Shown here in pieces: positions 1 through 50,475 of a DNA stretch of 64,000 nt; within the stretch, counting starts at the first letter, position 1, and each line of letters starts with the position of its first letter. The stretch is from Leucoraja ocellata (lineage: Eukaryota). The position numbers and the translations under genes were made by a program. Location of the stretch: contig JAWMAR010001270.1 in NCBI GenBank assembly GCA_036785375.1, positions 1 to 64,000 on the forward strand. The letters run 5' to 3'. The notes beneath the pieces were generated by a model. It searched no databases. It was not told where the DNA came from and saw only the letters and a list, made by a program, of their open reading frames with translations.

Positions 1-730
1 TTAGCCACAAGGGCCACATCTAACTCCCTCTTACATATAGCCAATGAACTGGCCTCAACTACCTTCGGCAGAGAATTCCACAGATTTACCACTCTCTGTG
101 TAAAACATGATTTTCTCATCTCGGTCCTAAAAGACTTCCCTCTTATCCTTAAACTGTGACCTCTAGTTCTGGACTTCTATAAGTTTCTATAAGATTCCCC
201 CCAATCTTCTAAATTCTAGCGTGTACAAGCCGAGTCTATCCAGTCTTTCTTCATATGAAAGTCCTGCCATCCCAGGGATCAGTCTGGTGAACCGTCTCTG
301 TACTCCTTCTATGGCAAGAATGTCTTTCCTCAGATTAGGAGACCAAAACTGTACGCAATACTCCAGGTGTGGTCTCCCCAAGACCCTGTACAACTGCAGT
401 AGAACCTCCATGCTCCTATACTCAAATCCTTTTGCTATGAATGCTAACATACCATTTGCTTTCTCCACTGCCTATTGCACGTGCATGCCTACTTTCAATG
501 ACTGGTGTACCATGACACCCAGGTCTCGTTGCATCTCCCCTTTTCCTAGTCGGCCGCCATTCGGATAATAGTCTACTTTCCTGTTTTTGCCACGAAAGTG
601 GATAACCTCACATTTATCCACATTATACTGCATCTGCCATGCATTTGCCCACTCACCCAGCCTATCCAAGTCACCTTGCAGCCTTCTAGCATCCTCCTCA
701 CAGCTAACACTGCCCCCCAGCTTTGTGTCA
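1..730 (-). mobile_element. CR1 LINE, 3' part of ORF2
   Basis: Minus-strand ORFs ...RPHLEYCVQFWSPNLRKDILAIEGVQRRFTR and WQMQYNVDKC. Confidence 0.9.
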
Positions 731-887
731 GATGATGTTATAATGCCCGACTTTTGGCGCTTCTCTGCAATATGTCAGGTAATACATTGAAACTGATACA
801 TTATCTTCACATGCAAGAGAGCAAAACGTATAAAACACACGAAGACCTGTCAGCACTTAATTTCATGTCCGTATTTGAATACGTTAG

Positions 888-2030
888 GTGTGGCTATTTC
901 ATCTTTTATAATTAATTCCAGCATCTTCCCCACCACCGATGTCAGGCTAACTGGTCTATATATCCCTGCTTTCTCTCTCCCGCCTTTCTTAAACAGTGGG
1001 ATAACATTAGCTACCCTCCAATCCACAGGAACTGATCCTGAATCTACAGAACATTGGAAAATAATCACCAATGCGTCCATGATTTCCAGAGCCACCTCCT
1101 TAAGTACCCTGGGATGCAGGTCATCGGGCCCTGGGGATTTATCAGTCTTCAGTCCCATCAGTCTACCCAACACCATTTCCTGCCTAGTGTGCATTTCCTT
1201 CAGTTGCTCCGTCACCCTAGATCTTATGCCCACTGGTACATCAGGGAGATTGTTTGTGTCCTCCTTAGTGAAGATGGATCCAAAGTACCTGTTCAACTCG
1301 TCTGCAATTTCCTTGTTCCCCATAAAAATTCACCTTTCTCAGTCTTCAATGGTCCAACTTTGATCCCAACTTTTTTTCCTCTTCACATACCTAAATAAGC
1401 TTTTAATACCCTCCTTTATATTCTGGGCCAGCTTACCTTCGTACCTCATCTTTTCTCCCCGTATTGCCTTTTTAGTTATCTTCTGTTGCTATTTAAACGT
1501 TTCCCAATCTTCTGGCTTCCTGTTCATCTATGCTATTTTATATGTCTTCTCTTTTATTTTTATATTGTCCCTGACTTCCCTTCTCAGCCCACGGTCGCCC
1601 CTTACTCCCCTTGGAATCTTTCTTGCTCTTTGGAATGAACTGATCCTGAACCTTCAGTATTATTCCAAGAAATACCTGCCATTGTTGAATCCATTGCCAT
1701 CCCTGCTAGGGTATCTTTCCAGTCAACTTTGGCCAGCTCTTCCCTCATCGCTTCATAATCCCCTTTGTTCAACTGTAATACTGACACCTCCGATTTATCC
1801 TTCTCCCTCTCAAATTGTAGATTAAAATTTATCAGATTATGGTCACCACCTCCTAATGGCTCCTTGACATCGAGTTCCCTTTATCAAATGCGGTTTATTA
1901 CACAACACTAAAATCCAAAATTGCCTTCTCCCTGGTAGGTTCCAGTACAAGCTGCTCTAAGAATCCATCTCGGAGGCACTCCACAAACTCACTTTCTTGG
2001 GGTCCAGTACCAGCAGCTGCAGCCCCTTCA
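888..2030 (-). mobile_element. CR1 LINE ORF2 fragment (degenerate)
   Basis: [15 protein letters not shown]...[12 protein letters not shown]. Confidence 0.88.
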
Positions 2031-2059
2031 CACACATTGTGTCGTATCGTAGTACCTGA

Positions 2060-2330
2060 AATTTGAAAATATAATGTTCAAACATTAGTTTGTAAGCTAC
2101 TCAAGCGAAATGTAAAGTGCTGGTCTTCCAGTTTGTGTGTTGGTCTCACTCTGGCAGTGGGGGACGGAAGGGACGAAAGGTCGGTATGGGAAGGAAAAGG
2201 TACGTTCAAATGGTTAGCAACCTAGAGCTCCAGCTGGCCTTCGCGAACAGGGCAAGGTTCGCCATCTAAAATATCGTCTGTCCATTCCTTCCGCCGATGC
2301 TGCCTGACCCGCTGAGTTCCTCCAGCATTC
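2060..2330 (-). mobile_element. Penelope-like element fragment (duplicated at ~42020-42290)
   Basis: Minus strand reads approximately KLEDQHFTFRLSSLQ, similar to the PLE C-terminal motif at 11080-11140. Adjoins the gctgg...gcagcatc repeat. Confidence 0.45.
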
Positions 2331-2814
2331 TGTTCTTTGCTGAAGGAACACAGCAGATTAGAGGTATCCATTTGCTCTATAGGTGCTGGATAGCTTGTTG
2401 GGTCCGTCGAGCAGTACAAAAATAATTTACGTGGAACGAGAAAACTAGTAAAATACACGGAAGAACGGAATTGTGTTTGTGGTAGAAAACTACTGGAATA
2501 ATATAACGGTAATATGGACGTTTCGGGTCCCTTCATTCAGTCCCAACACCTGCAGTTCCTCGTGTCTCCATTTTGTTTGTGTAATTCAATTAGTGATAGC
2601 TTCTGCTCTCGGGATTCTTTAGTGCTCCCGGAAGGTCTAGGAGAAAATTCTACATCAAGCATAAATGTTTCACCTGCGAGATGAGATGGGATGCCTTAAA
2701 ATAAAACTAAATATGAAACCCACTGCACTGTCACATGATATCCGGCGTCATGAAATACACGAATCTTTGAAGAGGCTTCCTCATTTGCAGCAAGCGACCA
2801 CCTCATTTTGCAAA

Positions 2815-2869
2815 ATGTCGTTTGGAGCATCAGTTCGATACATGACTCTTCTGGCTACAGTTTGGCACG
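2815..2869 (+). CDS. Gene A exon 1: signal peptide (MSFGASVRYMTLLATVWH) of VJ-C1 IgSF receptor
   Basis: ATG at 2815, 18 codons +1 nt, donor G|GTACGT (phase 1). A homologous 55-nt exon precedes each of the four V exons. Confidence 0.8.
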
Positions 2870-3271
2870 GTACGTTTAGATACATGTGGGGTTTCCGAAT
2901 CCCATGTCATGTTTTATAATATTCTATTTTAAAAAAAAGACACAACGTTCTGGAGTAATTCCGTGGGTCAGACAGCATCTTAGGAGAACGTGGATAGGTG
3001 ACGTTTCGGGTCGAAACTACTTCAGAATCTAAAGAAGACTCCTGGCCGCTGAGTTATTCCAGCACTCGGTGTCTTTTTTTGTAAACCAGCCGGTGCATTT
3101 CTTGTATCTCCTTAGAATATTCTATGTTGGTTACCAAGCACGAATTTAGTTACAGTGCTTCTTAATTCGTTTATGTCCGATTCTAGTTTATTTTGAATTT
3201 TTCAACTCTTTGTTCATTTTGCTTGTCCGGATGGCCAGCTGTTTTCAGTATTCTTGTTTTATTTCTGGCAG

Positions 3272-3577
3272 CCTTCGAAGTAACTTCAACCAAAGTGGAC
3301 CAATTCCCTAAAGACCTGACCGTCCACAGAGGAGGCAATGCGTCCATGTTCTGCACATTCTCAATACAACAAGTTACTCCTGATGTTTACTGGTGGAGAT
3401 GGGGCGAGAAGACATTTATAGAACCAGACAGCAGAAAACAATTTTCTATCAGAAAGGGCAGTGCGGATTTCATTCTCCTGAATACGAAAATCGCGGACTC
3501 CGGAGTTTATTATTGTAAATTGAAACAACAGCAGCAATCTATCGGAGATGGACCTGGCTCAAGGCTCACCGTGTTCG
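3272..3577 (+). CDS. Gene A exon 2: Ig V-set domain with germline-joined J-like G strand (NKp30/antigen-receptor-like)
   Basis: Acceptor ttctggcag|, donor G|GTAAGT, phase 1/1, 306 nt. Motifs MFC, VYWW, DSGVYYC and GDGPGSRLTV. Confidence 0.92.
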
Positions 3578-5079
3578 GTAAGTGCCCTGTAAGGGAGACA
3601 TTTTAAGCTTCCCGGGGTACAAGTAAAGCTCGCTGATATGAATAACATGACATTTTATAACTCGGCAAAAACTCGATAAGATTTATACTATAAAAACAAA
3701 CCGTTCCAAATCTGATATATTTAAATAATCCGTAAGTGGGTCAGCATCTGTGTAGAGCGAAAATGTCCTTTTCCTCATATCGTACTTCTCCAGACATTTT
3801 CCATTGCTCTCCTGTAGATTCGCGCTGTGCACTTTGGCGTTATTGCCCACGATTCAGATTCTCCGAAATCTGTAATCATTTAATCACTTAAAGTCTGGAA
3901 ACACGAAAATAAATCGATCTCTCGAGATTGGGATGTTAGAATATTCATTTAGATTAGGTATCGTGGGGTATGTGACAACAGGGTTTGTGACACAGAGACC
4001 TGACGCACAAACCACCCACGATTGAATTGAACAACGGAGCGGCCTCGGCCTTCATATTCTACTCTTATTCGTCGGCTGTAAACGAAGCTGAACCCCGGAT
4101 CAAACCACCGTGTTTATTATACAGATGAATCCTATAAACCGTTGAGAGGTTTGATTTGCTCGATTCTTACTCCAGGGACAGAATATCACCGTTTCACTCC
4201 GAGGATTCTCATTAAACCCTTAACCTTTATAAAATACGAGTAAGATTTAACGGCATTGGGGCAAACGCCTGAGCTCCCGTCCTTACAATTACATTCTTAC
4301 ATGACTCAACCACGTTTCCCACAAGAATCAGTCTCTCCACGTTATTCATTCTATCTAAATAGATCTGTGTTCGTGCCACAGATTAATTTTACGTTTTAGC
4401 TGATGATGCACTCGCCGAGGCTGAGAATAAGCATCGAGGTCTCCTCCGAGTTCAATAAAGAAACCGATCCAACAACCTGTTACTAAAGAAACGGAATGTA
4501 AAAATATTTAAAACTTATTAAACTCGTAGTCATCAACTCGTACAGCGATTTAACAAGAGGCCTCCTACTAACTACCTACTGATTTTAGATCCGACGGAGG
4601 TAGATCATCGTTCGCAAATTACCCACTCTGTGCTGATATAAGTGAAATCTTATTCAGACCAAACGTCTTCAACAAACCGAGTACATTTGGAAAATGGCAA
4701 AATTGTAGAAGAGACGTAGTCTAATTTGGATTTCCCATTCGCGTATTGTACTTATTGAAGAAGTGTCTAATATTTGCACGGCGATACTAATTATCAATAA
4801 ATAGACACAAAAAGCTGGAGTAACTTAACGGGACAGGCAGCATCACTGGAGAGAAGGAATGGGTCGAGATCCTTCTCCAGACATCTGCATTTCCTTCTTA
4901 ATAATTATTAGTATAACTCTATCATGCTCAAATTGTTCAGTTAGCGTTGTGGAGAAACGTCCCGGGCCAAAAGCTGTATCACTTGAGCCCTCCATCCCAG
5001 GTATTAAACAATTGTGTGGCCCAAGCTTTCATCTATGCAACTACGGCCTTCCTCTTGATTATTGATATTGGTGACATCT

Positions 5080-5395
5080 GGATATATACAGCGCTACATT
5101 GGTTAGCGCTGCCCACAATTTCAGCGACCCACCTTCAACCCAGATCCTGCGTGCGTCCATATATAGTTGTCCCCTTCAACGCGTAGACGTTCCTCCGGTG
5201 CTCCGGTTTATTCCGCGTGCCACAGATCTGCAGGTTGGTAGGAAAACTAGTCTCTGTAAATTGTCCCGGTTGATTGGTCGTGGTGAGGAGTGAAGAGGAA
5301 AGTTGACAGCAGATGAAAAATGAATAAGTAGAGATGGAGGTTTAATAACGCAATCTGCGCTGCTCTGTGCTGTGCTGTGCTGTGTATCTCTGTGA
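5080..5395 (+). mobile_element. Degenerate tRNA-derived SINE (HE1/V-SINE-like); copy at ~45370-45695
   Basis: Similar to the reverse complement of the SINEs at 21065 and 23035 (ccggtgctccggtt..., aaattgtccc, gctgtgtatctct tail). Confidence 0.55.
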
Positions 5396-5764
5396 TATTC
5401 CACTCTACACGTATCATTCTTTACACCAAAATCTCATAGAAACAGTCATTTTTGAACTGAACATAAAATTTTGTTGCCAGCGATGATACACCCCCCTCCA
5501 CGCTACTGATTTGGCACTTCAGAACATTGGCGATGTTTCAGAAGTCCACATATTACCTACATCCAAACCTCGGATTCCTTATGTATTGCTTGGATATATT
5601 TCACTGTCAAATCTAAAACAATGACAAATCAGTGGGTGCAAAAGCGATTGTACCGATAACCGATCTGATGGTGGGAGTGCAAGGTCGCGGTGTGACGAGG
5701 CAAACTAGAATGTTATCGTTGAATTGGAAAGAAAATATGCAACATATGTTTTCTTCTGTTACAG

Positions 5765-6055
5765 CTCCGCCAACTCCCCTGAGCATTAGCCAAGTTAATG
5801 GCAGTTCGCCGCCCAGACTTGTGTGTAAAACGGCTGCCTTTTCCCCGAAGGAAGTGAAAATATCCTGGCAAAGAAATGGTGTAACAATTTCCACCGGAGA
5901 AGAACGTGTGAACACCAGTAGCGTGGAGGAGTTGTATGTGGCTTCCAGCTTTCTCCAAGTAACGAAGCCTACCTGGCGCGTTGATATTTACACCTGCCTA
6001 GTGTCACATGTCTCCCTTGCGGTCCCGGCCAGAGTCGACTACACCGTCAAGCCAG
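5765..6055 (+). CDS. Gene A exon 3: Ig C1-set domain
   Basis: Acceptor tctgttacag|, donor G|GTAAG, phase 1/1. C1 hallmarks LVCKTAAFSP, ISW, YVASSFLQV and YTCLVSHVSL. Confidence 0.92.
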
Positions 6056-6329
6056 GTAAGACTGGCAAACAGAACTGGGAACAGAGGGAGACCTCCGATC
6101 CGATTTAGAAATATTGTTGGATACAGCTCAAACACGACTAGACGGGCTGAATGTGGACCGTGTTTATTCACCGCGGGAGTTCGGGCAAACTGACGTATCA
6201 TATGCTCTCATCTGTTTTCTAAATTATATCTGCATCTTCAATATTTATAGTGTCTGTGACGTGGCTAAACCTTCAAGGCTGTCAGAGGTGTTAGCAAACA
6301 AAAAATAATCAAAAAGACACAATCAGTGA

Positions 6330-8236
6330 GATGGGGATAGAGGTACACGTTCTTTATATATAGTCGGGAAATTACTTTGCAATGCTGAGATATTTCCCTA
6401 TTTTGAGGGTATGAGAGAAGGTCTAGCTCAACTTGATTGGGGCAGGTTATTTGAGGGGGAAGGAACATCGGCCAAGTGGGATGTTTTAAACGTATGCTGT
6501 AGAGAGCTCCGGGTGTGTACGTCTCCGTTAGAGTGAAAGGCAAAGCAGGCAAACGTGAAGAAGCTTGGCTGACGAGGGAAATTGAGACGTTAGTCAAAAA
6601 CAAGAAGGATGCATGGGACAGGTAAAGGCAGTTGGGATAAGTGCATCACTGGAGGAGTTTTGGGAAATAAGGAGCAAACTAAAAAAGGAGATCAGAAGGG
6701 CAAAAATTGGCCAGGAGATAGCTCTGGCGGGTACCATAAAAGACAATCCGAAAAGATTTTGTAAAAACATAAGGGGGGAAAGGATAACCAGAGAGAAAGT
6801 GGGACCTCTCAGGAATAAAAGCGGTCACCTCTGTGTGGAGCCACAGGAGATGGGTAAGGTCCTCAAAGAGTATTTCTCCTCTGCATTTACCAAGGAGAAA
6901 ACAGTAGGATGGAGGAAATTGGAGCAGTTACTGGAAGTGTCATGAGAGCATCGAGGAAGTACTGTCGAGGAAGTACTAAAGGTACTGTCTTGTTTGAAGG
7001 TAGTCAAATCTCTGGGGCCTGGTCGGATATATCAGAGGAAACAAGGGAGGAAATTGCGGAGGCCCTGGATTAAATGTATGTCGTCCTTAAATACAGGAGA
7101 GGTGCCAGAGGATTGGTGGGTGGCAAATGTTGTGCCTCTTTTCAAGAAGGACTGCAGGGAAAATGCTGGGAACTATAGGCTGGAGAGCTTAACATTTGTA
7201 GTTGATAAGTTACTGTGGAGTATTCTGAGGGATAGGTTATACATGCATTTGGATGGGCATGGGCTGATTAGGGACAGTCAGCATGGTTTTGTACGTGGGA
7301 CGTCGTGTCTCACAATCTGATTGATTGTTTTTGAAAACGTGGGCAAAAAGGTTGATGATGGCAGAGGGGTAGATGTTGTGTGCATGGATTTTAATAAGGC
7401 ATTCGACAAGGTGCCGCATGGTTGGCTGTTTTGGAAGGTTAGATCTCGTGGGATCTAAGGAGAGATAGCTGAATGGATAGTAAATTAGCTCCATGGAAGA
7501 AAATAGAATGTTAGTGGAAGATTGCTTCTCAGAATGGAGGCCAGTGACTAGTGGTGTGCCACAGGGTTCGGTGCTGGGCCCGTTACTGTTTGGCATCTAC
7601 ATCAATGATTTGGATGAAAACAAACAGGGCAAGATTAGCAAGATTGCTGATGATACAAAAGTTAGTGGTTTTGCAGATAGTGAAGATGGTTATGAACGAT
7701 TGCAGCAGGAACTGGATCGCTTGGCCACGTGGGCAGAGGAATGGTTGATGGAATTTAATACAGAGAAGTTTAAGGTGTTGCATTTTGGGAAGTCGAACAA
7801 GGGCAGGACCTAAACAGTAAATGCTAGTGGTGTAGAGCAGAGGGGTCTAGGAGTACAAGTGCATGGTTCCTTGAAGGTCGAATCGCAGGTGGTCAAAACG
7901 GCTTTTGGCACTTTGGCCTTCATCATTCAGAGTATTGAGTATAGATGTTGGTAGGTCATGTTGCAGTGGTATAAGACGTTGGTGAGACCACATTTAGAAT
8001 ATAGTGTTCAGTTCTGGGCACCATGTTATAGGAAAGATATTGTCAATCTTGAAATGGTTCAGAAAAGATTTACGATGATGTTGCCAGGTCTAGAGAGTGT
8101 GTGAGCTATAGGGAGACGTTAAGTAGGCTGGGTCTCTATTCCATGGAGCGTTGGAGGATGAGGGGAGATCTTATAGAAGTGTACACAATTATGAGGGGAA
8201 TAGATCGGGTAGATGCACAGATTCTACCCAGAGTAG
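6330..8236 (+). mobile_element. CR1 LINE ORF2 remnant, truncated at the duplication junction
   Basis: [14 protein letters not shown]...IADDTK, multiple stops. The paralogous copy at 46630-48860 retains its 3' end. Confidence 0.9.
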
Positions 8237-8250
8237 AATCTGTGCATCTA

Positions 8251-8720
8251 CCGCGGGTCAAAGGAGTTGGAGGAATTGAGTGAAATCCAGGTTAGCCGGG
8301 AAGTGGTGTTGGGTAAATTGAATGGATTAAAGGCCGATAAATCCCCAGGGCCAGATAGGCTGCATCCCAGAATACTTAAGGAAGTAGCTCCAGAAATAGT
8401 GGATGCATTAGTAATAATCTTTCAAAACTCTTTAGATTCTGGAGTAGTTCCTGAAGATTGGCGGGTAGCAAACGTAACCCCACTTTTTAAGAAGGGAGGG
8501 AGAGAGAAAATGGGGAATTACAGACCAGTTAGTCTAACATCGGTAGTGGGGAAACTGCTAGAGTCAGTTATTAAAGATGGGATAGCAGCACATTTGGAAA
8601 GTGGTGAAATCATTGGACAAAGTCAGCATGGATTTACGAAAGGTAAATCATGTCTGACGAATCTTATAGAATTTTTCGAGGATGTAACTAGTAGCGTGGA
8701 TAGGGGAGAACCAGTGGATA
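8251..8720 (+). mobile_element. Internal CR1 fragment nearly identical to ~11393-11862, lacking a 3' end
   Basis: ORF 8267-8791 matches ORF 11229-12245 almost residue for residue up to GEPVD. Confidence 0.88.
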
Positions 8721-8955
8721 TGGAAGGTTACAAAGAGATGTCAGATCTGAAAATGACAGATCAAAGCAGACGACATATATTTATTCGCTAACTTGCAAAT
8801 AATGCAATTCGTTCCATTCGGTATATATTGGAATGCTTGTACACCAAGGATTAAAAAGACACATTCGGAGTGCTCTGCCTTCCTGACTCCTAATTTCTCA
8901 CCAGTTTCTTAGTTTATCTGTTTTACAGTTTTAAATGTATCTGCTTCTCCTGCAG

Positions 8956-9054
8956 ACTCTAATCTCGCACTGATTCTCGGATGTGTAGTGGGCGTATTGG
9001 CAATTTTAATCCCGATTATAATTTTGATAGTACTCAGAATAAAGGCAACAAATG
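8956..9054 (+). CDS. Gene A exon 4: uncharged transmembrane exon (DSNLALILGCVVGVLAILIPIIILIVLRIKATN)
   Basis: Acceptor ttctcctgcag|, donor G|GTAAGA, phase 1/1, 99 nt. About 23 hydrophobic residues followed by basic residues. Homologous to the TM exons of genes B and C. Confidence 0.85.
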
Positions 9055-9159
9055 GTAAGACCGTTATTTATTTTTGCCAATTGCTTTAATATCCTAACAG
9101 TATTTCAGAAAACAGGAACATTGAATTAATAAATGTCGAGTGCAGAAGAAGAAACATTG

Positions 9160-9203
9160 TAGGTCATCATTAGGTGATCATTAGGTCATCATTAGGTGAT
9201 CAT
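9160..9203 (+). repeat. 11-bp tandem repeat x4 (TAGGTCATCAT/TAGGTGATCAT)
   Basis: Read directly from the sequence. Confidence 0.9.
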
Positions 9204-9676
9204 TCACATAACAAAAACATTATGACAGTTAACTATTGAAATGTGCTGGAACATTTTATTTTTTTCAAAATTCGAATTATTCGCTCATCGACTGCGTCTT
9301 TATTTCACATCTAAGAGGAATTGTTCATACATTACATTTTATTCTTTAAAACTATTGAATCTTAAGGAATTTGATATGGATCTTGACTTTGTTTGTGAGC
9401 AACCTGCTCTAACTTGCCACACTTTTTATTTTCATTGTAATTTTGGAATGTGACACGGCTGCTGACACGCTATCACCATTTGATAATTTAATTCAAAGTC
9501 ATGTTCGATTACATATTACAGACTATGCGAAGTTAATACACTAACACAAGATTGCAAAAACCGCTATGGCTAAACGGTTTCAAATATAACGGCGCCATCA
9601 GGAGTTCTTACTTTAGCCAATACATTTGATTATCTTCAAAGACACAATATTCATTTTGTTGTCTTGTTTTCTTTAG

Positions 9677-9720
9677 ATGTTAATAAAAATTCGATGGAAT
9701 CAAGTCGAAGTGCAGAAACG
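9677..9720 (+). CDS. Gene A exon 5: short cytoplasmic exon (DVNKNSMESSRSAET)
   Basis: Strong acceptor ttgttttctttag|, donor |GTAGGG. Phase 1 to 0, which fits the last exon exactly. Confidence 0.7.
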
Positions 9721-10549
9721 GTAGGGTGCAATGCTCTTAGTATTGCCATTTTTTTTCAAAAATGTTCTTTAGCAAAGATTTTAATTTCATTGAGTAAAAT
9801 CTAGAATTATTGTGGCACAGTGGAAGCTGTCCTGTTTATATCAACCTTGCATTTTCGAGTAATTACCAATATTATTTTCAATTTCAAAGAATGCACTCCA
9901 AATCATTAACGTTAAGTCACTGATGAAGCGTTTGTCATGTTCATCGATCTGCTGCTGTCGGGCAAAAAACTTTGTTCTCTCAAGGATGCGATTCGGGGGC
10001 AGGTAACATAACTCTAAAATTTTCTGAGTAGGACGGTTGGATTGTCGATAGATTCTGCTGGCACAATGACCTGGCCATTATCGTTGGGGAAAACTCGAAG
10101 TTGGCTGCACGAAGCATTCTGGACCCGCTAGATTGAGCAGTAGCGATGCCTTCAGATCATCGGGGTCATTTAGTGAGCATAATCACGTTCAAACATGCGC
10201 CATCGCTCATCTGTCAGTAAAACACAAGGGGACTCGGTTTTCGACAGGAGTTGGCCATAACGTTGAAAAATCACAAAATAAAACTGATAAAGAAAATAAA
10301 CAGCGGTAAACGAACGTAGTGGGTTAGACCCAATAACTATGTAATTACCCGACTCGCACTCAGATAAAGGTATAAGCATCTTTAATATCCATTCCAGTAT
10401 CAGATATGCAGTACATTATACATTCATTCTGCTGCAACTACTGAATACAGTAAGCGAGTTCTTGCACCATAAAGCATGCACTAGGCAGAGTTATTATTAC
10501 TAAGCATTCTGATTGGCTAACATCCAATAGTCAATCTACAACCCCCATT

Positions 10550-11215
10550 GCCCAATCTACACCATATCCCTTATACCTATCTCCATTCCCCACCAGGAAG
10601 GTCTCGGGGCATTCCCAATCTTTTTATGGAGATCCAATCAGTTCCCCTCAACTAACACTTTCCTCCATCTGGCAGAATACGTCTTCAGCTTTAACAACTA
10701 TTCTTGACTCCTCTCACTTTCTTTAAGTCAAAGGTATAGCCTTGTATCTTTGTTTATATTTAGAATTGACACCCTGTGCAAGTGTACAAACAGCATGGGT
10801 GCGACTCCCCCGTTGATGGATTGCTTTCACAATTTGTCACCACGGACACCTTTCCATTTCTAGGCCTGGTTTTCAACGTGATTGTTCTCAAACACGACTT
10901 ACAAATTAGATTTTTGGATTCAAGTTTCTTGGTGCAGTGGATCACTTCTGAGGCAGAGGTGACCTGTACAATAGGGATGGTTGCACCTGAACTGTTTGGA
11001 ACCTATATCGAGGCAGTTCCCGAGGCAGGTTCGGTCCTGGGCCTCCTCCATTGATAGAGTAAGACCACATGCAAATTGGTGGAACAGCACCTCATAATTC
11101 ACTTGGGTAGCTTCACCCTTGGGTAGTGGTATGAACATTAAATTATACAATTTTTTGCTAACTTCTACATAATCACCTCCCCTCACTTTTCTGCCCCTTC
11201 TCCCTCCCCAATCCC
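10550..11215 (+). mobile_element. Penelope-like retroelement remnants (RT piece and C-terminal endonuclease region)
   Basis: Degenerate segments resembling 'NNFSFDSSHFLQVKG' at ~10690-10740 and 'EQHLIIHLGSF..GMNI' at ~11080-11140, recalled as chondrichthyan PLE motifs. Confidence 0.5.
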
Positions 11216-11257
11216 GATCCTCAGCTAAATGTCAGGTAACCAGTTCACAATTACGTA

Positions 11258-13050
11258 TCCTGTAGGTCCCTTGCAGTCAGAAACAGGTGAGTTGATCATG
11301 GGGAACAAGGATATGGCGGACCAATTGAATAACTACTTTGGTTCCGTCTTCACTAAGGAAGACATAAATAATTTGCCGGAAATAGCAGGGAACCGCGGAT
11401 CAAAGGAGTTGGAGGAATTGAGTGAAATCCAGGTTAGCCGGGAAGTGGTGTTGGGTAAATTGAATGGATTAAAGGCCGATAAATCCCCAGGGCCAGATAG
11501 GCTGCATCCCAGAGTACTTAAGGAAGTAGCTCCAGAAATAGTGGATGCATTAGTAAAAATCTTTCAAAACTCTTTAGATTCTGGAGTAGTTCCTGAAGAT
11601 TGGCGGGTAGCAAACGTAACCCCACTTTTTAAGAAGGGAGGGAGAGAGAAAATGGGGAATTACAGACCAGTTAGTCTAACATCGGTAGTGGGGAAACTGC
11701 TAGAGTCAGTTATTAAATATGGGATAGCAGCACATTTGGAAAGTGGTGAAATCATTGGACAAAGTCAGCATGGATTTACGAAAGGTAAATCATGTCTGAC
11801 GAATCTTATAGACTTTTTCGAGGATGTAACTAGTTGCGTGGATAGGGGAGAACCAGTGGATGTGGTGTATCTGGACTTCCAGAAGGCTTTCGACAAGGTC
11901 CCACATAAGAGATTAGTATACAAACTTAAAGCACAAGGCATTGGGGGTTCAGTATTGATGTGGATAGAGAACTGGCTGGCAAACAGGAAGCAAAGAGTAG
12001 GAGTAAACGGGTCCTTTTCACAATGGCAGGCAGTGACTAGTGGGGTACCCCAAGGCTCAGTACTGGGACCCCAGCTATTTACAATATATATTAATGATCT
12101 GGATGAGGGAATTGAAGGCAATATCTCCAAGTTTGCGGATGACACTAAGCTGGGGGGCAGTGTTAGCTGTGAGGAGGATGCTAGGAGACTGCAGGGTGAC
12201 TTGGATAGGCTGGGTGAGTGGGCAAATGTTTGGCAGATGCAGTAATGTGGATAAATGTGAGGTTATCCATTTTGGTGGCAAAAACAGGAAAGCAGACTAT
12301 TATCTAAATGGTGGCCGATTGGGAAAGGGGGAGATACAGCGAGACCTGGGTGTCATGGTACACCAGTCATTGAAGGTAGGCATGCAGGTGCAGCAGGCAG
12401 TAAAGAAAGCGAATGGTATGTTAGCTTTCATTGCAAAAGGATTTGAGTATAGGAGCAGAGAGGTTCTACTGCAGTTGTACAGGGTCTTGGTGACACCACA
12501 CCTGGAGTATTGCGTACAGTTTTGGTCTCCAAATCTGAGGAAGGACATTATTGCCATAGAGGGAGTGCAGAGACGGTTCACCAGACTGATTCCTGGGATG
12601 TCAGGACTGTCTTATGAAGAAAGACTGGATAGACTTGGTTTATACTCTCTAGAATTTAGAAGATTGAGAGGGGATCTTATAGAAACTTACAAAATTCTTA
12701 AGGGGTTGGACAGGCTAGATGCAGGAAGATTGTTCCCGATGTTAGGGAAGTCCAGGACAAGGGGTCACAGCTTAAGGATAAAGGGGAAATCCTTTAAAAC
12801 CGAGATGAGAAGAACTTTTTTCACGCAGAGAGTGGTGAATCTCTGGAACTCTCTGCCACAGAGGGTAGTTGAGGCCAGTTCATTGGCTATATTTAAGAGG
12901 GAGTTAGATGTGGCCCTTGTGGCTAAGGGGATCAGGGGGTATGGAGAGAAGGCAGGTACGGGATACTGAGTTGGATGATCAGCCATGATCATATTGAATG
13001 GCGGTGCAGGCTCGAAGGGCCGAATAGCCTACTCCTGCACCTAATTTCTA
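11258..13050 (+). mobile_element. Young 5'-truncated CR1 LINE (RT domain to 3' UTR, single frameshift at ~12243)
   Basis: [21 protein letters not shown] and FADDTK motifs; (TTTCTATG)n-type tail. Lies in gene A intron 5. Confidence 0.95.
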
Positions 13051-13319
13051 TGTTTCTATGTGTCTATGTATCCCTCGTGGGATCGCACCACCCCTAGACA
13101 ACAATTGTCCTATCCAGGAACACCTAGTCTTGGGTTGTCTGTTGCTGGCATTGATCTGTCCTGGTCTTTTTTTGCTTCCAGACCCCCCTCTCTACAATCA
13201 GTCTGAAGAAGGGTCCTGGACCGAAACGGCACCTATCCGTTTTCTGCTAAAATGCTGCCTGTCCCACTGAGATACTGCAGCATTTTGTGTCTGTCTCAGG
13301 TTTTGCTAATATTACATGG

Positions 13320-17931: not shown

Positions 17932-18057
17932 ACTAAAGGAAGCGAAGCTGACAAGCCTACTTACGCTGCTCTGCAGTTTTCCAAATCAATTAAATCGGCA
18001 CCTAAACCCAAGAACGAACACCCAGTCTACGCAGATATAAATATTTCAAAGGGGTAA
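17932..18057 (+). CDS. Gene A exon 6: terminal cytoplasmic exon with two ITIM-like motifs (TKGSEADKPTYAALQFSKSIKSAPKPKNEHPVYADINISKG*)
   Basis: TACTAAC branch point at 17900-17906, acceptor ctttcacag|, phase 0, TAA at 18055-18057. Motifs TYAAL and VYADI. Joined model is 921 nt, 306 aa. Confidence 0.78.
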   Translation, partial: TKGSEADKPTYAALQFSKSIKSAPKPKNEHPVYADINISKG

Positions 18058-27886: not shown

Positions 27887-27985
27887 GAATTGATCGCAAA
27901 CAGATTATCGTATATGCAGTAGGTGGATCAGTAATTTTAATTCTGATTATAATCGTGATAGGACTCGCCTTAAAGATATGGCACG
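27887..27985 (+). CDS. Gene B TM exon 1, neutral (GIDRKQIIVYAVGGSVILILIIIVIGLALKIWH)
   Basis: Acceptor aatccaccag|, donor G|GTAAGA, phase 1/1, 99 nt, hydrophobic. Confidence 0.8.
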
Positions 27986-29024: not shown

Positions 29025-29126
29025 AATGTACCTATAAAATACTGATTCTCACACGTGCAGTGGGCGGGTTGGTAATTTTACTTTCGATTATAATTTTGAC
29101 CAGATTAGCATGGACGGCACAACATG
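29025..29126 (+). CDS. Gene B TM exon 2, Arg-containing (ECTYKILILTRAVGGLVILLSIIILTRLAWTAQH)
   Basis: Acceptor cctaatccag|, donor G|GTAAGA, phase 1/1, 102 nt. Clear nucleotide similarity to the gene A TM exon. Confidence 0.72.
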
Positions 29127-29436
29127 GTAAGAACCTTGGATTGTTCAGTTATTTCAATTGTATTTCTAGAAAAGAGAAAATATGCGTTTTTATTCGGAAT
29201 TAAACAGAACGTCCATAGTATTTATCTATTTTACAGTTGGCTATACCAATGTAAACAGTGCCTTAAAATGCAATGATTTCACCTTTCCATTCGAAGTATT
29301 CACTCCTCCCCTGAACCAATGCATTTTGAACACCTGAGTGTATTCACCGAAATGTGTCCCTCGTGACAAAACGAGAGGAAACCGAGCGTCCGAGAGCAAA
29401 GTAGCCAATTTCAATCTGTCCAAAGGGCCCTGCCGG

Positions 29437-29602
29437 CTAAGATTCTAAGATTAAGATTAAGATTCAATTTTAATTGTCATTGTCAGTGTACAGTACAGAG
29501 ACAACGAAATGCATTTAGCATCTCCCTTGAAGAGCGACATAGCAAACGATTTGAATAAATAATAATAAGTGTCGGGGGGGGGGGGGGGGGTGGTGATTGG
29601 CA
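29437..29602 (-). mobile_element. 3'-terminal fragment of a Rex1/Babar-like LINE flanked by 67-bp direct repeats (29363-29429, 29623-29689)
   Basis: Matches ~38468-38627. The flanking repeats differ at 2 positions. Confidence 0.85.
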
Positions 29603-30331
29603 AATCAAACTGACAAATCAAAGTGACAAAACGAGAGGAAACCGAGCGTCCGAGAGCAAAGTAACCAATTTCAATCTGTCCAAAAGGCCACAACCTGTGA
29701 TCCGACTGACAAATGGAAGTGTATCACTAAATTCAGAATGGGAATTTACACCATGGCCTTGACAGATGAAACTGGTTGCCAGCGATCAAACACAAATACA
29801 TCAAAACGGCTCTGTGCAATATTAGTACTTCACATGGATAGTATCCTATGTGTTTAAGAATTTAACGAATCTCTTAATCTGGCCTTCAATGTCGCCTGTT
29901 TGACGTTTGTTCCTTCTCCTTATGACCCCGTGGATTTATTCCGGGTGTTCCTGCTTTCTAGCACATCTCAAAGATGTGTGGAATGGCGGGTTAATTATCC
30001 CCTGTAATATGCTCATCTGGTAGAGGACTGCTAAAGTTTGGGGGCGCAGGGGAGGTTAATGACAATATGAAGAGAATAAAGTCGTATTTGGGTTAATGGG
30101 AGTTTGACGGTCGGCGCAGACTTGGATCCGCGTAACTACGACATAGTTCTGTGGACCAAGATCGGCTCATGTGAAAATCGAGAAAAATATTGATATAAAA
30201 TCCATATAACCTTTCTGCAAACTAAAATGTATAATTGTTGAGTACCTTAGAATGTTATTGGAAATAAAAACGATTGTTTTCCCGAGTCACTGAACGATGG
30301 ACTAATGGCCGATATGGAATTACTTCCACAG

Positions 30332-30442
30332 ACTAAAGGAGGGGGAGCCAACAAGCTGTTCCGCATCTTCCCAACTAATAACAAATCAACAATTAAGCAA
30401 AACGGCAAACACGCAAAGGTTTCAAAGAAAGCGAGAAGTTGA
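30332..30442 (+). CDS. Gene B terminal exon, paralogue of the gene A ITIM exon but lacking tyrosines (TKGGGANKLFRIFPTNNKSTIKQNGKHAKVSKKARS*)
   Basis: Acceptor and start cttccacag|actaaagga match the gene A ctttcacag|actaaagga, with ACTAAT upstream. The linking phase 1-to-0 exon was not confidently found. Confidence 0.5.
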   Translation, partial: TKGGGANKLFRIFPTNNKSTIKQNGKHAKVSKKARS

Positions 30443-32908: not shown

Positions 32909-33221
32909 NNNNNNNNNNNNNNNNNNNNNNNNNNNNNNNNNNNNNNNNNNNNNNNNNNNNNNNNNNNNNNNNNNNNNNNNNNNNNNNNNNNNNNNNNNNN
33001 NNNNNNNNNNNNNNNNNNNNNNNNNNNNNNNNNNNNNNNNNNNNNNNNNNNNNNNNNNNNNNNNNNNNNNNNNNNNNNNNNNNNNNNNNNNNNNNNNNNN
33101 NNNNNNNNNNNNNNNNNNNNNNNNNNNNNNNNNNNNNNNNNNNNNNNNNNNNNNNNNNNNNNNNNNNNNNNNNNNNNNNNNNNNNNNNNNNNNNNNNNNN
33201 NNNNNNNNNNNNNNNNNNNNN
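32909..33221. other. Assembly gap (313 N)
   Basis: Run of n characters. Confidence 1.
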
Positions 33222-36780: not shown

Positions 36781-38460
36781 AGAACCGGCCTCCACCGCCT
36801 TCTGAGGCAGAGAATTCCACAGACTCACAACTCTCTGTATGAAAAAGTTATTCTTCATCTCCGTTCTAAATGGCTTACCCCTTATTCTTAAACTGTAACC
36901 CCTGGTTCTGGACTCCCTTCAAAATCGGGAACATGTTTCCTGCCTCTAGCTTGTCCAACCTTATATGTTTCAATAAGACGCACTCCCATCCTAAATTCCA
37001 GAGTATACAAGCCCAGCGGCTCCATTCTATCAACATATGATAATCCCACCATCCTGGGAATTAACCTGGTGAACCTACCTACGCTGCACTCCCTCAATAG
37101 CAAGAATGCCCTCCTCAGATTTGGAGACCAAAACTGCAATAAATATTCCAGGTGTGGTCTCACTAGTGCCCTGTACAACAGCAGAAAGACCTCTTTGCTC
37201 CTGTACTCAACTCCTCTTGTTATGAAGGCCATTTGCTTTCTTCACTGCCTACTGTACCTGCATGCTTACTTTCAGTGACTGATGAATAAGGACCCCCAGA
37301 TCCCGTTGTACTTGCCTTTTTCCCAACTTGACACCATTTAGATAATAACCTGCCTTCCTGTTTTGCCACCAAAGTGGATAACCTCACATTTATCCACATT
37401 AAACGGCATCTGCCATGCATCTGCCCACTCACCCAACCTGTCCAAGTCATGCTGCATCCTCATAGCATCCTCCTCACAGGTCACACTGCCACCCAGCTTT
37501 GTGTCATTCGCAAATTTGCTAATGTTATTTTTAATCCCTTCATCAAAATCATTAATGTATATTGTAAATAGCTGCAGTCCCAGCACCGAGCCTTGCGGTA
37601 CCCCACTAGTCACTGCCTACCATTCTGTAAGGGACCCGTTAATCCCTACTCTTTTTTTCCTGTCTGCCAACCAATTTTCTATCCGTCAGCACTCTACCCC
37701 CCAATACCATGTGCCCTAATTTTGCCCACTAAGCTCCTATGTGGGGCCTTATCAAATGCTTTCTGAAAGTCCAGGTACACTACATCCACTGGCTCTCCCT
37801 TGTCTATTTTCCCAGTTAAATCCTCAAAAAATTCCAGAAGATTAGTCTAGCATGATTTCCCCTTCGTAAAACCATGCTGACTCGGACTGATCCTGCTACC
37901 TGTACTGTTATCCAAATGTGTGGCTATTTCATCTTGTATAATTAATTCCAGCATCTTCCCCACCACCGATGTCAGGCTAACTGGCCTATAAATCCCTGTT
38001 TTCTCTCTCCCCGCCTTTCTTAAACAGTGGGATAACATTAGCTACCCTCCAATCCACAGGAACTGATCCTGAATCTACAGAACATTGGAAAATAATCACC
38101 AATGCATCCATGATTTCCAGAGCCACCTCCTTAAGTACCCTGGGATGCAGATCATCGGGCCCTGGGGATTTATCAGTCTTCAGTCCCATCAGTCTACCCA
38201 ACACCATTTCCTGCCTAATGTGCATTTCCTTCAGTTCCTCTGTCACCCAAGATCTTATGGCCACTGGTACATCAGGGAGATTGTTTGTGTCCTCCTTAGT
38301 GAAGATGGATCCAAAGTACCTGTTCAACTCGTCTGCAATTTCCTTGTTCCCCATAATAAATTCACCTTTCTCAGTCTTCAATGGTCCAACTTTGATCCTA
38401 ACTTTTTTTTCCTCTTCACATACCGAAATAAGCTTTTAATACCATCCTTTATATTCTGGG
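36780..38460 (-). mobile_element. CR1 LINE ORF2 remnant (continues at 41402-41990 after the Rex1 insertion)
   Basis: GVPQGSVLG...FANDTK and KSPGPDDLHP on the minus strand. Confidence 0.9.
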
Positions 38461-38467
38461 CCAATTT

Positions 38468-41032
38468 CAGATTCAGATTCAGATTCAATTTTAATTGTCA
38501 TTGTCAGTGTACAGTACAGAGACAACGAAATGCATTTAGCATCTCCCTTGAAGAGCGACATAGCAAACGATTTGAATAAAAAAATAATAAGTGTCCGGGG
38601 GGGGGGGGGGGGGGGGGTGATTGGCAGTCACCGAGGTACGTTGTTGAGTGGAGTGACAGCCGCCGGAAAGAAGCTGTTCCTCGACCTGCTGGTTCGGCAA
38701 CGGAGAGACCTGTAGCGCCTCCCGGATGGTAGGAGGGTAAACAGTCCATGGTTGGGGTGAGAGCAGTCCTTGGCGATGCTGAGCGCCCTCCGCAGACAGC
38801 GCTTGCATTGGACAGACTCAATGGAGGGGAGCGTGGAACCGGTGATGCGTTGGGCAATTTTCACCACCCTCTGCAATGCCTTCCGGTCGGAGACAGAGCA
38901 GTTGCCATACCATACTGTGATGCAGTTGGTAAGGATGCTCTCGATGGTGCAGCGGTAGATGTTCACCAGGATCTGAGGAGACAGGTGGACCTTCTTCAGT
39001 CTCCTCAGGAAGAAGAGACGCTGATGAGCCTTCTTGATCAGAGTAGAGGTATTGTGGGTCCAAGAGAGGTCATTGGAGATGTTGACTCCCAGGAACCTGA
39101 AGCTAGAAACACGTTCCACCTCCGTCCCGTTAATGTGGATGGGGGTGTGCGTGCCGCCTCTGGACTTCCTGAAGTCTACAATGAGCTCCTTGGTCTTCTT
39201 GGAGTTAAGGGCCAGGTTGTTGTCAGCGCACCATGCTGCTAAGTGCTGGACCTCCTCCTGTAGGCCAGCTCATCGTTGTTGCTGATGAGGCCAATCACCG
39301 TTGTATCATCTGCATACTTGATGATGGTGTTAGTACCATGTACAGGTGTGCAGTCATAGGTGAAGAGGGAGTAGAGGAGGGGGCTCAGCACACAGCCCTG
39401 AGGAACGCCGGTGTTCAGGGTGAGGGTTGAAGAGGTGTGCTTGTCTAACCTCACAGACTGGGGTCTGTTGGTTAGAAAGTCCAGTGTCCAGTTGCAGAGG
39501 GAGGGGTCGATGCCCAGGTTACCGAGTTTGGTGATCAGTTTTGATGGAATAATGGTGTTGAATGCTGAGCTGTAATCGATGAACAGCATTCTTACATAAG
39601 TGTCTCTGTTGTCGAGGTGGGAGAGGGCGGAGTTAAGTGCCGTTGAGATGGCATCCTCCGTACTCCTGTTCTTGCGGTAGGCAAACCGATAGGGATCCAG
39701 TGTGGGGGGTAGGCAGCTTTTTGAGGTGTGCCAGGACCAGCCTCTCGAAGCACTTGGTGATGATGGGGGTAAGTGCAACTGGGCGGAAGTCGTTGAGGCT
39801 TGCCGCAGTGGAGTGTTTTGGCACTGGCACGATGGAGGTGGCTTTAAGGCAAGTGGGGACAACTGCTTGGGCAAGTGACAGGTTGAAGATGTCAGTCCAG
39901 ACGTCTGTCAGCTGCGCAGCACAGGCCCTGAGCACGCGCCCGGGGATGCCGTCAGGGCCAGCAGCCTTTACGTGCATTAGTCCTACTCAGTGCCACATAC
40001 ACGTCGTAGGGGGTGAGTGTGAGGGGTTGGTGATCGGCAGGTAGAACAGCCTTGATGGCTGTCTCTAGATTGTCCCTGTTGAAGCGGCCATAGAAGTGAT
40101 TAAGCTCCTCAAGGAAGGAGGCGTCGCTGGATGTGGGGGTGATGTTGGAGGGTCTGTAGTCCGTGATGGCCTGGATGCCTTGCCACATGCGTCGGGGGTC
40201 GGAGTTGTTGTTGAAGTGCTCCTCAATCCTGAGCTCATGGCAGTGCTTGGCCTTCCTGATGCCCCTCTTCAGGTTAGCCCTGGATGAACTGTAGGCTCGA
40301 GCATCGCCTGACCTGAAAGCGGTGTCCCGTGCTTTCAGCAGTAGCCTGACCTCGCTGTTCATCCATGGCTTCTGATTCGGGTATATTTGAGGGAGGTGAC
40401 ACTATTGATGGTGCAGTTTATAAAGTCCAGAACAGAGGATGTGTAGGAATCCATGTCCGTGTGAGAGTCAAGGGTGGCCTGGGCTGCAAACGCCTTCCAG
40501 TCAGTGTTTCCAAAACACTGCTGAAGTGTGAAGTCCGCTTCCTCTGACCAGACTTTAACTGTCCTTACAGTTGGTTTAACCCGTCTGATGAGTGGGAAGT
40601 ACTTAGGGAGCAGGAACAATGAGACGTGATCAGACTGACCAAGGTGGGGGAGAAAAGATGGCGTTGTAAGCTTCAACCATGTTGGTGTAGACTTTGTCCA
40701 GTGTCTTGTCTACTCTAGTGGGGAAGGATACATGTTGGTGGAATTTGGGGAGTACAGTCTTCAGTTTGGAGTGATTGAAGTCACCCGCAACAATGAAGGC
40801 TGCCTCGGGGTTGTGCCTCTGTTTTTTGCTAATGGCAATATGCAGCTCTTTCATTGCAAGCTTGGCATTAGCATCAGGAGGGATATAGGCTGCAGTCACA
40901 ACAGTGGAGGTGAACTCTCTGGGCAGATAGAACGGTCTGCATCTAACCAAGAGGAACTCAAGGTTAGCTGAGCAGTGACTCTCGATGATGGTGGAGTCCG
41001 TGCACCATGCTTTGTTTACATAAATGCACAGA

Positions 41033-41063
<31 letters not shown>

Positions 41064-41401
41064 TGGTCTTACCAGAGTCTGATGTCCTGTCCGCTCGGAG
41101 TAAATGACGCCCCGATAACTGGATGGCGCTGTCAGTGTTGAGCCAAGTTTCAGTGAAGATCAAGATGTTGCAGTCCTTGATCCGGTTGTGGGAGGTGATC
41201 CTTAGCCGGAGTTCATCCATTTTGTTTGCCAGTGAGCGCACGTTGGCGAGGAAAAGGCTAGGAATCGCTGCCCTGTGTGGGGCTAGCTCTAACCTGGCCT
41301 TTAACCCATCTCTGCGTCCCCGGCGGTGTTTTCGTACCCGTCGCCGTCTGTTGGTGCTTCTGGTGGGCCGAGCAGGCTTGGTGCGCGCTGGTGTTCTGCC
41401 G
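38468..41401 (-). mobile_element. Rex1/Babar-clade LINE (APE endonuclease + RT, frameshifted), nested in CR1, apparent TSD CAATTT
   Basis: ORFs with [39 protein letters not shown] and YADD. (GAATCT)n 3' tail. CAATTT at 38462-38467 and 41402-41407. Absent from the paralogous site at ~1430. Confidence 0.88.
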
Positions 41402-42776
41402 CAATTTACCTTCGTACCTCATCTTTTCTCCCCGTATTGCCATTTGTTGCTCTTTAAACGTTTCCCAATCTTCTGGCTTCCTGTTCATCTATGCTATTTT
41501 ATATGTCTTCTCTTTTTATTTTTATATTGTCCCTGACTTCCCTTGTCAGCCACGGTCGCCGCTTACTCCCCTTGGAATCTGTCTTGCTCTTTGGAATGAA
41601 CTGATCCTGCACCTTCAGTATTATTCCAAGAAATACCTGCCATAGTTGAATCCATTGCCATCCCTGCTAGGGTATCTTTCCAGTCAACTTTGGCCAGCTC
41701 TTCCCTCATCGTTTCATAGTCCCCTTTGTTCAACTGTAATACTGACACCTCCGATTTATCCTTCTCCCTCTCAAATTGTAGATTAAAATTTATCAGATTA
41801 TGGTCACCACCTCCTAATGGCTCCTTGACATCGAGTTCCCTTTATCAAATGCGGTTTATTACACAACACTAAATCCAAAATTGCCTTCTCCCTGGTAGGT
41901 TCCAGTACAAGCTGCTCTAAGAATCCATCTCGGAGGCACTCCACAAACTCACTTTCTTGGGGTCCAGTACCAGCAACTGCAGCTCCTTCACACACATTGT
42001 ATCGTATCGTAGTACCTGAAATTTGAAAATATAATGTTCAAACCATTAGTTTGTAAGCTACTCAAGTGAAATGTAAAGTGCTGGTCTTCCAGTTTGTGTG
42101 TTGGTCTCACTCTGGCAGTGGGGGACGGAAAGGACGGAAAGGTCGGTATGGGAAGGAAAAGGTACGTTCAATTGGTTAGCAACCCAGAGCTCCAGCTGGC
42201 CTTCGCGAACAGGGCAAGGTTCGCGATCTAAAATATCGTCTGTCCATTCCTTCCGCCGATGCTGCCTGACCCGCTGAGTTCCTCCAGCATTCTGTTCTTT
42301 GCTGAAGGAACACAGCAGATTAGAGGTATCCATTTGCTCTATAGGTGCTGGATAGCTTGTTGGGTCCGTCGAGCAGTACAAAAATAATTTACGTGGAACG
42401 AGAAAACTAGTAAAATACACTGAAGAACAGAATTTTGTTTGTGGTAGAAAAGTACTGGAATAATACAACGGTGATATGGACGTTTCGGGTCCCTTCATTC
42501 AGTCCCAACACCTGCAGTTCCTCGTGTCTCCATTTTGTTTGTGTAATTCAATTAGTGATAGCTTCTGCTCTCGGGATTCTTTAGTGCTCCCGGGAGGTCT
42601 CGGAGAAAATTCTACATCAAGCATAAATGTTTCACCTGGGAGATGAGATGGGATGCCTTAAAATAAAACGAAATATGAAACCCACTGCACTGTCACATGA
42701 TATCCGGCGTCATGAAATACACGAATCTTTGAAGAGGCTTCCTCATTTGCAGCAAGCGACCGCCTCATTTTGCAAA

Positions 42777-42831
42777 ATGTCGTTTGGAGCATCAGTTCGA
42801 TACATGACTCTTCTGGCTACAGTTTGGCACG
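42777..42831 (+). CDS. Gene C exon 1: signal peptide (identical to gene A leader)
   Basis: 55 nt, donor G|GTACGT. Confidence 0.8.
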
Positions 42832-43224
42832 GTACGTTTACATACATGTGGGGTTTACGAATCTCATGTCATATTTTATATTATTCTATTTTTAAAAAAG
42901 ACATGTAGTTCTAGAGTAATTCCGTGGGTCAGGCAGCATCTAAGGAGAACGTGGATAGGTGACGTTTCGGGTCGAAACTACTTCAGAATCTAAAGAAGAC
43001 TCTTGGCCGCTGAGTTACTCCAGCACTCGGTATCTTTTTTTGTTAACCAATTCCTTGTATCTCCTTAGAATATTCTATGTTGGTTACCAAGCACGAATTT
43101 AGTTACAATGCTTCTTAATTCGTTTATGCCCGATTCTAGTTTATTTTGAATTTTTCAACTCTTTGCTCATTTTGCTTGTCCGGGTGGCCAACTGTTTTCA
43201 GTATTCTTGTTTTATTTCTGGCAG

Positions 43225-43530
43225 CGTTCGAAGTAACTTCAACCAAAGTGGACCAATTCCCTAAAGACCTGACCGTCCACAGAGGAGGCAATGCGTCCAT
43301 GTTCTGCACATTCTCAATACAACAAGTTACTCCTGATGTTTACTGGTGGAGATGGGGCGAGAAGACATTTATAGAACCAGACAGCAGAAAACAATTTTCT
43401 ATCAGAAAGGGCAGTGGGGATTTCATTCTCCTGAATACGAAAATCGCGGACTCCGGAGTTTATTATTGTAAAGTGAAACAACAGCAGCAATCTATCGGAG
43501 ATGGACCTGGCTCAAGGCTCACCGTGTTCG
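43225..43530 (+). CDS. Gene C exon 2: VJ-type Ig V domain (2 aa differences from gene A)
   Basis: AG/GT boundaries, phase 1/1, 306 nt. DSGVYYCKVKQQQQSIGDGPGSRLTV. Confidence 0.92.
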
Positions 43531-50404: not shown

Positions 50405-50475
50405 GTAAGAACGCTAGGGGACTTATCACAATAATTCAGTTGATATAAACTTTAAATGTTTTGTTTCTTTAACAG

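Follow-up and report, generated by a model that had tools for sequence, protein, structure and literature searches.

A V-C1 receptor gene of Leucoraja ocellata assembled as a mosaic of a paralogue's front and a different transmembrane and tyrosine-motif half

The stretch of DNA analysed here, called the window below, comprises positions 1 to 64,000 of the forward strand of contig JAWMAR010001270.1 from Leucoraja ocellata (GenBank assembly GCA_036785375.1) and holds four same-strand V-C1 receptor genes, A, B, C and the start of D. Gene A is a mosaic in this assembly, as an earlier inspection of the letters by themselves (the sequence-only reading) had proposed: it shares with gene C, some 40 kb away, a block that includes introns and ends before the transmembrane (TM) exon, with A/C identities of 98% in the V exon, 94% in the C1 exon and 38% in the TM exon. 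The features of the two genes are as follows.

1-730, minus strand: 5'-truncated copy of CR1, a family of long interspersed nuclear elements (LINEs), differing from the left CR1 of gene C (73% to 36782-37506 by self-BLAST)
731-887, no strand: 157 bp of DNA that is not CR1 and matches nothing else in the window
888-8236, plus strand: cassette shared with gene C (37918-48545), comprising a CR1 remnant, promoter region, leader, V, C1 and a CR1 remnant
2815-2869, plus strand: gene A leader exon (predicted start), identical to that of C
3272-3577, plus strand: V-set exon of gene A, differing from C at 2 amino acids
5765-6055, plus strand: C1-set exon of gene A, differing from C at 6 amino acids
6588-8236, plus strand: 3' stretch of the cassette, closer to C than the rest (1.1% divergence against 2.8%)
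8208-8252, no strand: fold-back, a perfect 20-bp inverted repeat (8208-8227/8233-8252) with a 5-nt loop
8250-8720, plus strand: internal fragment of open reading frame 2 (ORF2) of a young CR1 subfamily, its frame open
8956-9054, plus strand: gene A TM exon, its core without a charged residue and closest to the neutral TMs of Pristis and Heterodontus
9677-9720, plus strand: first cytoplasmic exon of gene A, predicted by reading frame and splice sites only
11262-13075, plus strand: young CR1 in the last intron of gene A, the nearest match to the filler at 8250-8720
17932-18057, plus strand: gene A last exon, with two tyrosine motifs resembling the immunoreceptor tyrosine-based inhibitory motif (ITIM), Pro at -2 in both
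36782-41990, minus strand: left CR1 of gene C, 3' end intact, crossing the breakpoint at 37918
38464-41405, minus strand: C-only LINE insertion of 2.9 kb, from a family other than CR1 (RVT_1, Exo_endo_phos), with a 6-bp target duplication
42777-46354, plus strand: gene C leader (42777-42831), V (43225-43530) and C1 (46064-46354) exons
43816-44132, no strand: 317 bp present in C only, of unknown polarity, at which contigs of sets X1 and X4 (below) break exactly
46700-48860, plus strand: right CR1 of gene C, crossing the breakpoint at 48545
49267-50495, plus strand: TM exon of gene C, Arg-bearing (49267-49371), and a short predicted tail that lacks an ITIM-like motif

By self-BLAST, the homology between gene A 888-8236 and gene C 37918-48545 falls into three collinear blocks (888-1430/37918-38463, 1433-3864/41406-43815 and 3860-8236/44133-48545) that differ by substitution at 177 of 7,312 aligned sites (2.42%); these are the limits given by the sequence-only reading, save that the left partner in C is 37918 and not 37917. 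The cassette carries ~1.9 kb 5' of the predicted start, and its right limit lies inside the C1-TM intron, before the TM exon. The sequence-only reading made no mention of the two C-only segments within the block, of 2.9 kb and 317 bp. The 2.9-kb LINE sits in the left CR1 of C, where gene A has the empty site; this insertion postdates the A/C split. Divergence drops at ~6588 from 159/5,663 to 18/1,649 (permutation p=0.004, with the cut point chosen post hoc), which implies that the A/C block is of more than one age, and the part at 6588-8236 was likely re-homogenised with C later. CpG content was rejected as the cause of this step, since non-CpG sites still differ at 125/5,228 against 13/1,579. 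Between the C1 exons (A 5767-6054, C 46066-46353) there are six non-synonymous codon differences and one synonymous, four of them within 8 residues, against only two amino-acid changes in V.

The ends of this block differ between the two genes. The CR1s of gene C are continuous across both breakpoints, as had been claimed, though the left one is broken 545 bp in by the C-only LINE, whereas in gene A, and there only, both flanking CR1s are without their 3' ends. LINE insertion truncates 5' ends, and retrotransposition does not yield 3'-truncated copies; the truncation confined to gene A therefore marks the ends of A as derived, in agreement with the sequence-only reading. That reading was also right that the left end abuts 157 bp of unrelated DNA (731-887) and a different CR1 copy. 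The CR1 at 1-730 is likely the pre-existing flank, and its family continues differently past 730 in all four contig sets described below. Five bp before the left junction there is a 6-bp hairpin, weaker than the fold-back on the right and of a kind present in 2% of 3,974 random 26-mers.

At the right junction, the predicted fold-back and internal fragment of another CR1 subfamily are both present. The fold-back is the sole site in the 64 kb with a perfect inverted repeat of at least 12 bp and a loop of at most 10, and at the matching breakpoint of C only its inner 4-bp stem exists, extended to 20 bp in A. The filler of ~470 bp is entered at a 3-bp microhomology and left at a 4-bp match into the gene A TM intron, an exit that is backed by contigs beginning to fit at 8717. 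A short inverted duplication, microhomology at each switch and a templated insert are thus all found, as expected of fold-back repair of the MMBIR type (microhomology-mediated break-induced replication). The filler is 98.5% identical (7/471 differ) to 11392-11862 inside gene A. Five of the seven differences can be polarised, with one derived on the filler (P=0.02 at the mean A/C age) and four on the 11392 copy, so that we do not favour 11392 as the template at the time the cassette formed, another young CR1 copy being as likely a source. The right junction looks younger than the duplication. We note that 8717-8773 has a weak likeness to a repeat at ~61620-61690 that resembles a short interspersed nuclear element (SINE) and could represent such an element's cut end, belonging to an unfused intron.

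The proposal that A and C form a receptor pair is supported by their anatomy. Gene C has the features of an activating partner, namely Arg in the TM and a short tail without an ITIM-like motif. The back of gene A, which the sequence-only reading called an inhibitory TM/ITIM half, does combine a neutral TM with two tyrosine motifs, but a canonical ITIM has I, V, L or S at Y-2 and neither gene A motif does, both having Pro. Among 19 homologues scanned, motif 1 has Leu at -2 in 9 of 12 matches and Thr in the other 3, and motif 2 has Ala or Thr in 10/10; the Pro of gene A is unlike all 22. Inhibitory signalling by gene A is thus predicted from two motifs that lie off the consensus. Driven by a promoter of the C type, the protein encoded by gene A would be predicted to recognise largely the same ligand as C and to differ in its signalling. 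The C1-TM intron is in phase 1 in all three genes where it is visible (A, B and C), which bears out the earlier claim for every paralogue except D, whose C1 lies outside the window. Splicing as predicted gives gene A an uninterrupted frame of 306 residues, but since all introns as far as the TM exon are in phase 1, the open frame is no evidence for a real join.

We compared the public contig sets X1, X2, X4 and X7 with the window over 560-11250, where CR1 swamped the matches; the statements that follow hold among the records listed, the best 32 of ~495,000. X1 is from organism A and X4 from organism B. In both X1 and X4, contigs stop at 3861 and begin again at 3860 with no loose letters, and from these contig ends both 317-bp forms appear to be present in organisms A and B; X2 has both letter sets beside the 317-bp site. 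The long contigs of X1 are A-type, with 3/969 differences against 27 A/C differences there. Six of the seven X4 cassette contigs differ from A at 31/2,041 sites (1.5%) against 68 A/C differences (3.3%; p=2e-4), and with the seventh (22/427 from A) included the counts become 53 from A and 78 A/C of 2,467 sites (p=0.03). X4 is thus closer to A than C is, which implies that the A/C split of the cassette predates the species split of organism B. The sole A-only contig of X4 differs from A at 9/595 (1.5%), and X7 lies further off, with sums of 115/2,208 and 40/1,054, as an outgroup. X1 and X2 each have one contig over 8717-9120 with 9 left letters that do not fit the window, the side of these letters in X1 having been taken from the shared right end; a form of the gene A TM intron that is without this junction therefore exists in both samples. 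Contig depths in X1 and X2 hint at unequal dosage of A-type and C-type; they are not copy numbers and were not used.

The explanation that fits best, to which we give a probability of about 0.48, just short of even odds, is that gene A descends from an old tandem duplicate of a C-like gene that was partly re-homogenised and whose front was then fused by a recent deletion to the back of an inhibitory-type neighbour. A C-like gene would have been duplicated before the split from organism B, with 887/888 as the left edge of the duplication. The copies would then have diverged, C gaining its 2.9-kb LINE and the 3' part likely being re-homogenised afterwards, both of which have left their record in the alignment. 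Finally, a break in the C1-TM intron of the duplicate would have been followed by fold-back on the 4-bp stem with 16 nt copied, a switch at 3 bp into a young CR1 with ~470 nt copied, and a rejoining at 4 bp 5' of the neighbour's TM exon; the junction still has the corresponding anatomy. Such a fusion deletion would remove the tail of the duplicate and the neighbour's own front half, and the phase-1 introns would keep the 306-residue frame open across the fusion, as it is in the predicted transcript.

Several points weigh against this explanation. The filler, at 7/471 from the 11392 copy, is not significantly less diverged than A and C are on average (p=0.27), and at the rate of the 3' tract its youth is not significant either (P=0.23). 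Organism A may not be the species of the window. Among the listed, CR1-swamped records, no contig bridges 887/888, 8236/8237 or 8720/8721. Contig assemblers can drop short paths beside high-copy repeats, and the fusion junction could also be present in X1 and X2 and have been dropped in this way, or it may be absent from them. The deleted middle is something that we infer and do not see, and the tyrosine motifs of the supposed inhibitory back are non-canonical. The order of events, together with the expression and signalling of gene A, is likewise what we infer. The partial duplication is real; the fusion, a probable one between paired receptors and of a kind already known, has a junction that is well preserved as assembled.

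The most serious rival, although an unlikely one, is an assembly fill or misjoin at the right junction: the cassettes would be real, 8237-8716 would be a gap closed with a fold-back read and a near-consensus CR1, and gene A as assembled may not exist. The scaffold does contain a gap, of 313 N at 32909-33221 between genes B and C, and the filler is near the ancestral state with its frame open. X1 and X2 are near-identical to the window on the A side (0 and 3 differences in ~404 bp) yet have another left flank at 8717, and the lack of a junction-bridging contig among the listed records is as this rival would have it. The filler, however, has one derived change and 7 differences from its nearest copy, and both switch points have the microhomology of repair scars. 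Further, X1 and X2 need not represent the source animal, given that at 5436-5548 their C-like cassette has letters absent from both window A and window C, which suggests a third allele or paralogue.

We also regard as improbable a one-step paste or an older chimera, in which a block of the C lineage was copied into the A locus by break-induced template switching, replacing the front of A, with the right junction made in that event or by a later intronic deletion. Hairpins at both junctions are in keeping with this, the ages of filler and cassette are not formally different, and the distance of X4 from the window, 1.5% in the cassette and in the A-only region alike, fits joint inheritance. A one-step paste would, however, require an unconverted allele to persist across the species split, the two-step version of the older chimera needs a third event, and the divergence step at ~6588 shows a block of more than one age. 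The single paste event of the sequence-only reading is not supported: the cassette split is older than the species split, while the right junction appears to be young and has another form beside it in X1 and X2.

LINE-mediated exon shuffling, in which CR1-CR1 recombination or CR1 transduction moved the block, was the mechanism favoured by that reading and can be given very little weight. Both donor-side breakpoints do lie in CR1, and a CR1 of the same orientation lies 157 bp from the left junction. However, CR1-like DNA accounts for ~34% of the window, a figure slightly too high because part of the other LINE is counted in it, for 35% of the possible left-breakpoint interval and for 74% of the C1-TM intron of C, giving a joint chance of 0.35 x 0.74 = 0.26 for both breakpoints (0.34 squared = 0.11 window-wide), and the LINE breakpoints are not in excess of chance. 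Homologous recombination is contradicted by the register: the gene A CR1 (1-730) aligns to 411 bp short of the C breakpoint, with the 157 non-CR1 bases between, the filler on the right restarts ~1.3 kb earlier in ORF2, and an in-register hybrid CR1 was looked for at both junctions and is absent. Signs of retrotransposon transduction are not found either, the CR1 3' ends being gone in A, and the introns kept in the gene A block exclude it. The CR1s are best read as bystanders and patch material rather than as the recombination substrate, and gene A gives no evidence for a new LINE-driven shuffling mechanism. It is highly improbable that the cassettes of A and C represent a single locus whose two alleles were assembled to the left and right of the gap that separates them: 2.4% divergence is possible for immune alleles and contig depths, unreliable as they are, show no clean doubling, but everything outside the block is non-homologous and three of the four sets, from two organisms, contain both types (both 317-bp forms in X1 and X4, both letter sets in X2).

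Gene B has tandem phase-1 TM exons at 27887-27985 and 29025-29126, one neutral and one with Arg, the latter 83% identical to the gene A TM over 59 nt, and opposite signalling from a single gene could come from alternative splicing of the two. Its last exon (30332-30442) is homologous to the tyrosine-motif exon of gene A with both tyrosines lost, and splicing it straight from either TM exon leads to a stop after one codon; a frame-correcting exon was searched for and not located. The LINE family inserted in C is also represented at 29363-29690, by a 3' fragment of 155 bp lying between two copies of ~65 bp with few differences, unusually long for a flanking duplication. The last gene of the window is represented by its first exons only.

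63306-63872: gene D leader and V (85% to C); the C1 and TM of D lie beyond the window

The relatives of these genes are chondrichthyan proteins automatically named SIRP-like or NCR3LG1-like (Heterodontus XP_067905823.1, Pristis XP_051884096.1, Mobula and Scyliorhinus). We picked 33 homologues for trees, leaving the five without a TM exon out of the TM tree, which has too few columns to place A, B or C. In the C1 tree genes A, B and C group with batoids (99/99), A and C on a long branch, and in the V tree A, C and D form one clade (100/99). Heterodontus homologue P0002 shows the same conserved type as gene A, with a neutral TM and a two-tyrosine last exon. Outside the window, the genes nearest the gene A V (Heterodontus, Pristis) are also nearest its TM, implying that the ectodomain lineage is not deeply foreign to the tyrosine-tail type. 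None of the 63 homologue matches is named from a skate, and the former ectodomain of gene A is not recoverable from a close orthologue among them; a search with the gene A last exon gave zero candidates, and an extra cytoplasmic exon sought in gene A with 19 homologue tails was not found. Of 55 within-species pairs, 7 share at least 85% in both V and C1; in two of the seven the TM exons are unlike, in one they are alike and in four the models are without a TM exon. The two unlike pairs, Mobula birostris P0160/P0169 (V/C1/TM identity 93/94/48%) and Scyliorhinus (canicula) P0172/P0177 (93/93/17%), show that ectodomain sharing recurs in the elasmobranch V-C1 family.

The SIRP ectodomain is V-C1-C1, a layout that genes A, B and C, with one C1 exon each, do not have, and SIRP-alpha scores about as well as antibody light chains against P0002 (E 1.4e-12 vs 2e-12). 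UrIg2 (V-C1-C2-C3 by its PDB title) is a weak match to P0002. No paper describing an elasmobranch V-C1 receptor family was found in the literature searched, mostly without subscription journals and without supplements; the accessible text of PMC10751288 and PMC3031540 mentions PRARP, UrIg and MDIR, and the V-C1 family is not described in it. Like the automatically named elasmobranch V-C1 receptors, gene A has the V-C1-TM layout, 63-65% V identity to them and a homologous neutral TM and two-tyrosine last exon, and some elasmobranch members have Arg TMs, as gene C does. Unlike those receptors, A, C and D form their own V clade, A and C sit on a long C1 branch, and the motifs of A have Pro at -2.

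Paired opposing receptors with homogenised ligand-binding domains (KLRC/NKG2, KLRI, KLRB and PIR) have been described as cases of merohomogenization (available text of PMC3210942). As in those pairs, the similarity of A and C includes introns, covers the ligand-binding half only and is patchy in age, whereas its ends are non-homologous junctions, not conversion tracts inside old homology, and the family is chondrichthyan. Homogenisation of this type, restricted to the ligand-binding half, appears to have further examples in the literature. In the part of PMC5701461 available to us, SIGLEC11 and SIGLEC16 are an adjacent inhibitory/activating pair with a common upstream region and ectodomain exons and repeated later conversion. 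A and C are likewise an inhibitory/activating-type pair with the upstream region and ectodomain exons in common, but in the SIGLEC pair the inhibitory gene was duplicated, whereas here the inhibitory-type gene A has the derived ends, and the block is 7.3 kb. Fold-backs and templated insertions at breaks, with inverted duplications of 5-34 bp, are reported for FoSTeS (fork stalling and template switching) and MMBIR (accessible sections of PMC11724301 and PMC4888836). The gene A scar resembles these in its 16 nt of new inverted duplication, microhomology at the switches and templated insert, and differs in that it is read from one assembled germline junction.

In its boldest form, which we consider possible but doubtful, the fusion would be a very young, still segregating allele that joined the ectodomain and promoter of an activating-type receptor to an inhibitory-type tail by way of a non-homologous scar of fold-back and template switching, in a V-C1 family undescribed in the literature found and swapping ectodomains repeatedly (Mobula, Scyliorhinus), which would amount to a KIR-like haplotype system in cartilaginous fish. 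If the fusion is real, ectodomain exchange between paired immune receptors would extend to cartilaginous fish, a repair scar would, unusually, be visible at base level, and fused and unfused haplotypes would be directly comparable. The locus is also a sign of a large cluster of V-C1 receptors, which until now have carried only automatic names. Hybrids that join the front of one tandem paralogue to the back of another are also seen in FCGR2C and the KIR fusion genes, described as products of unequal homologous crossover. Gene A as assembled is a hybrid receptor of the same form, but its junction is non-homologous.

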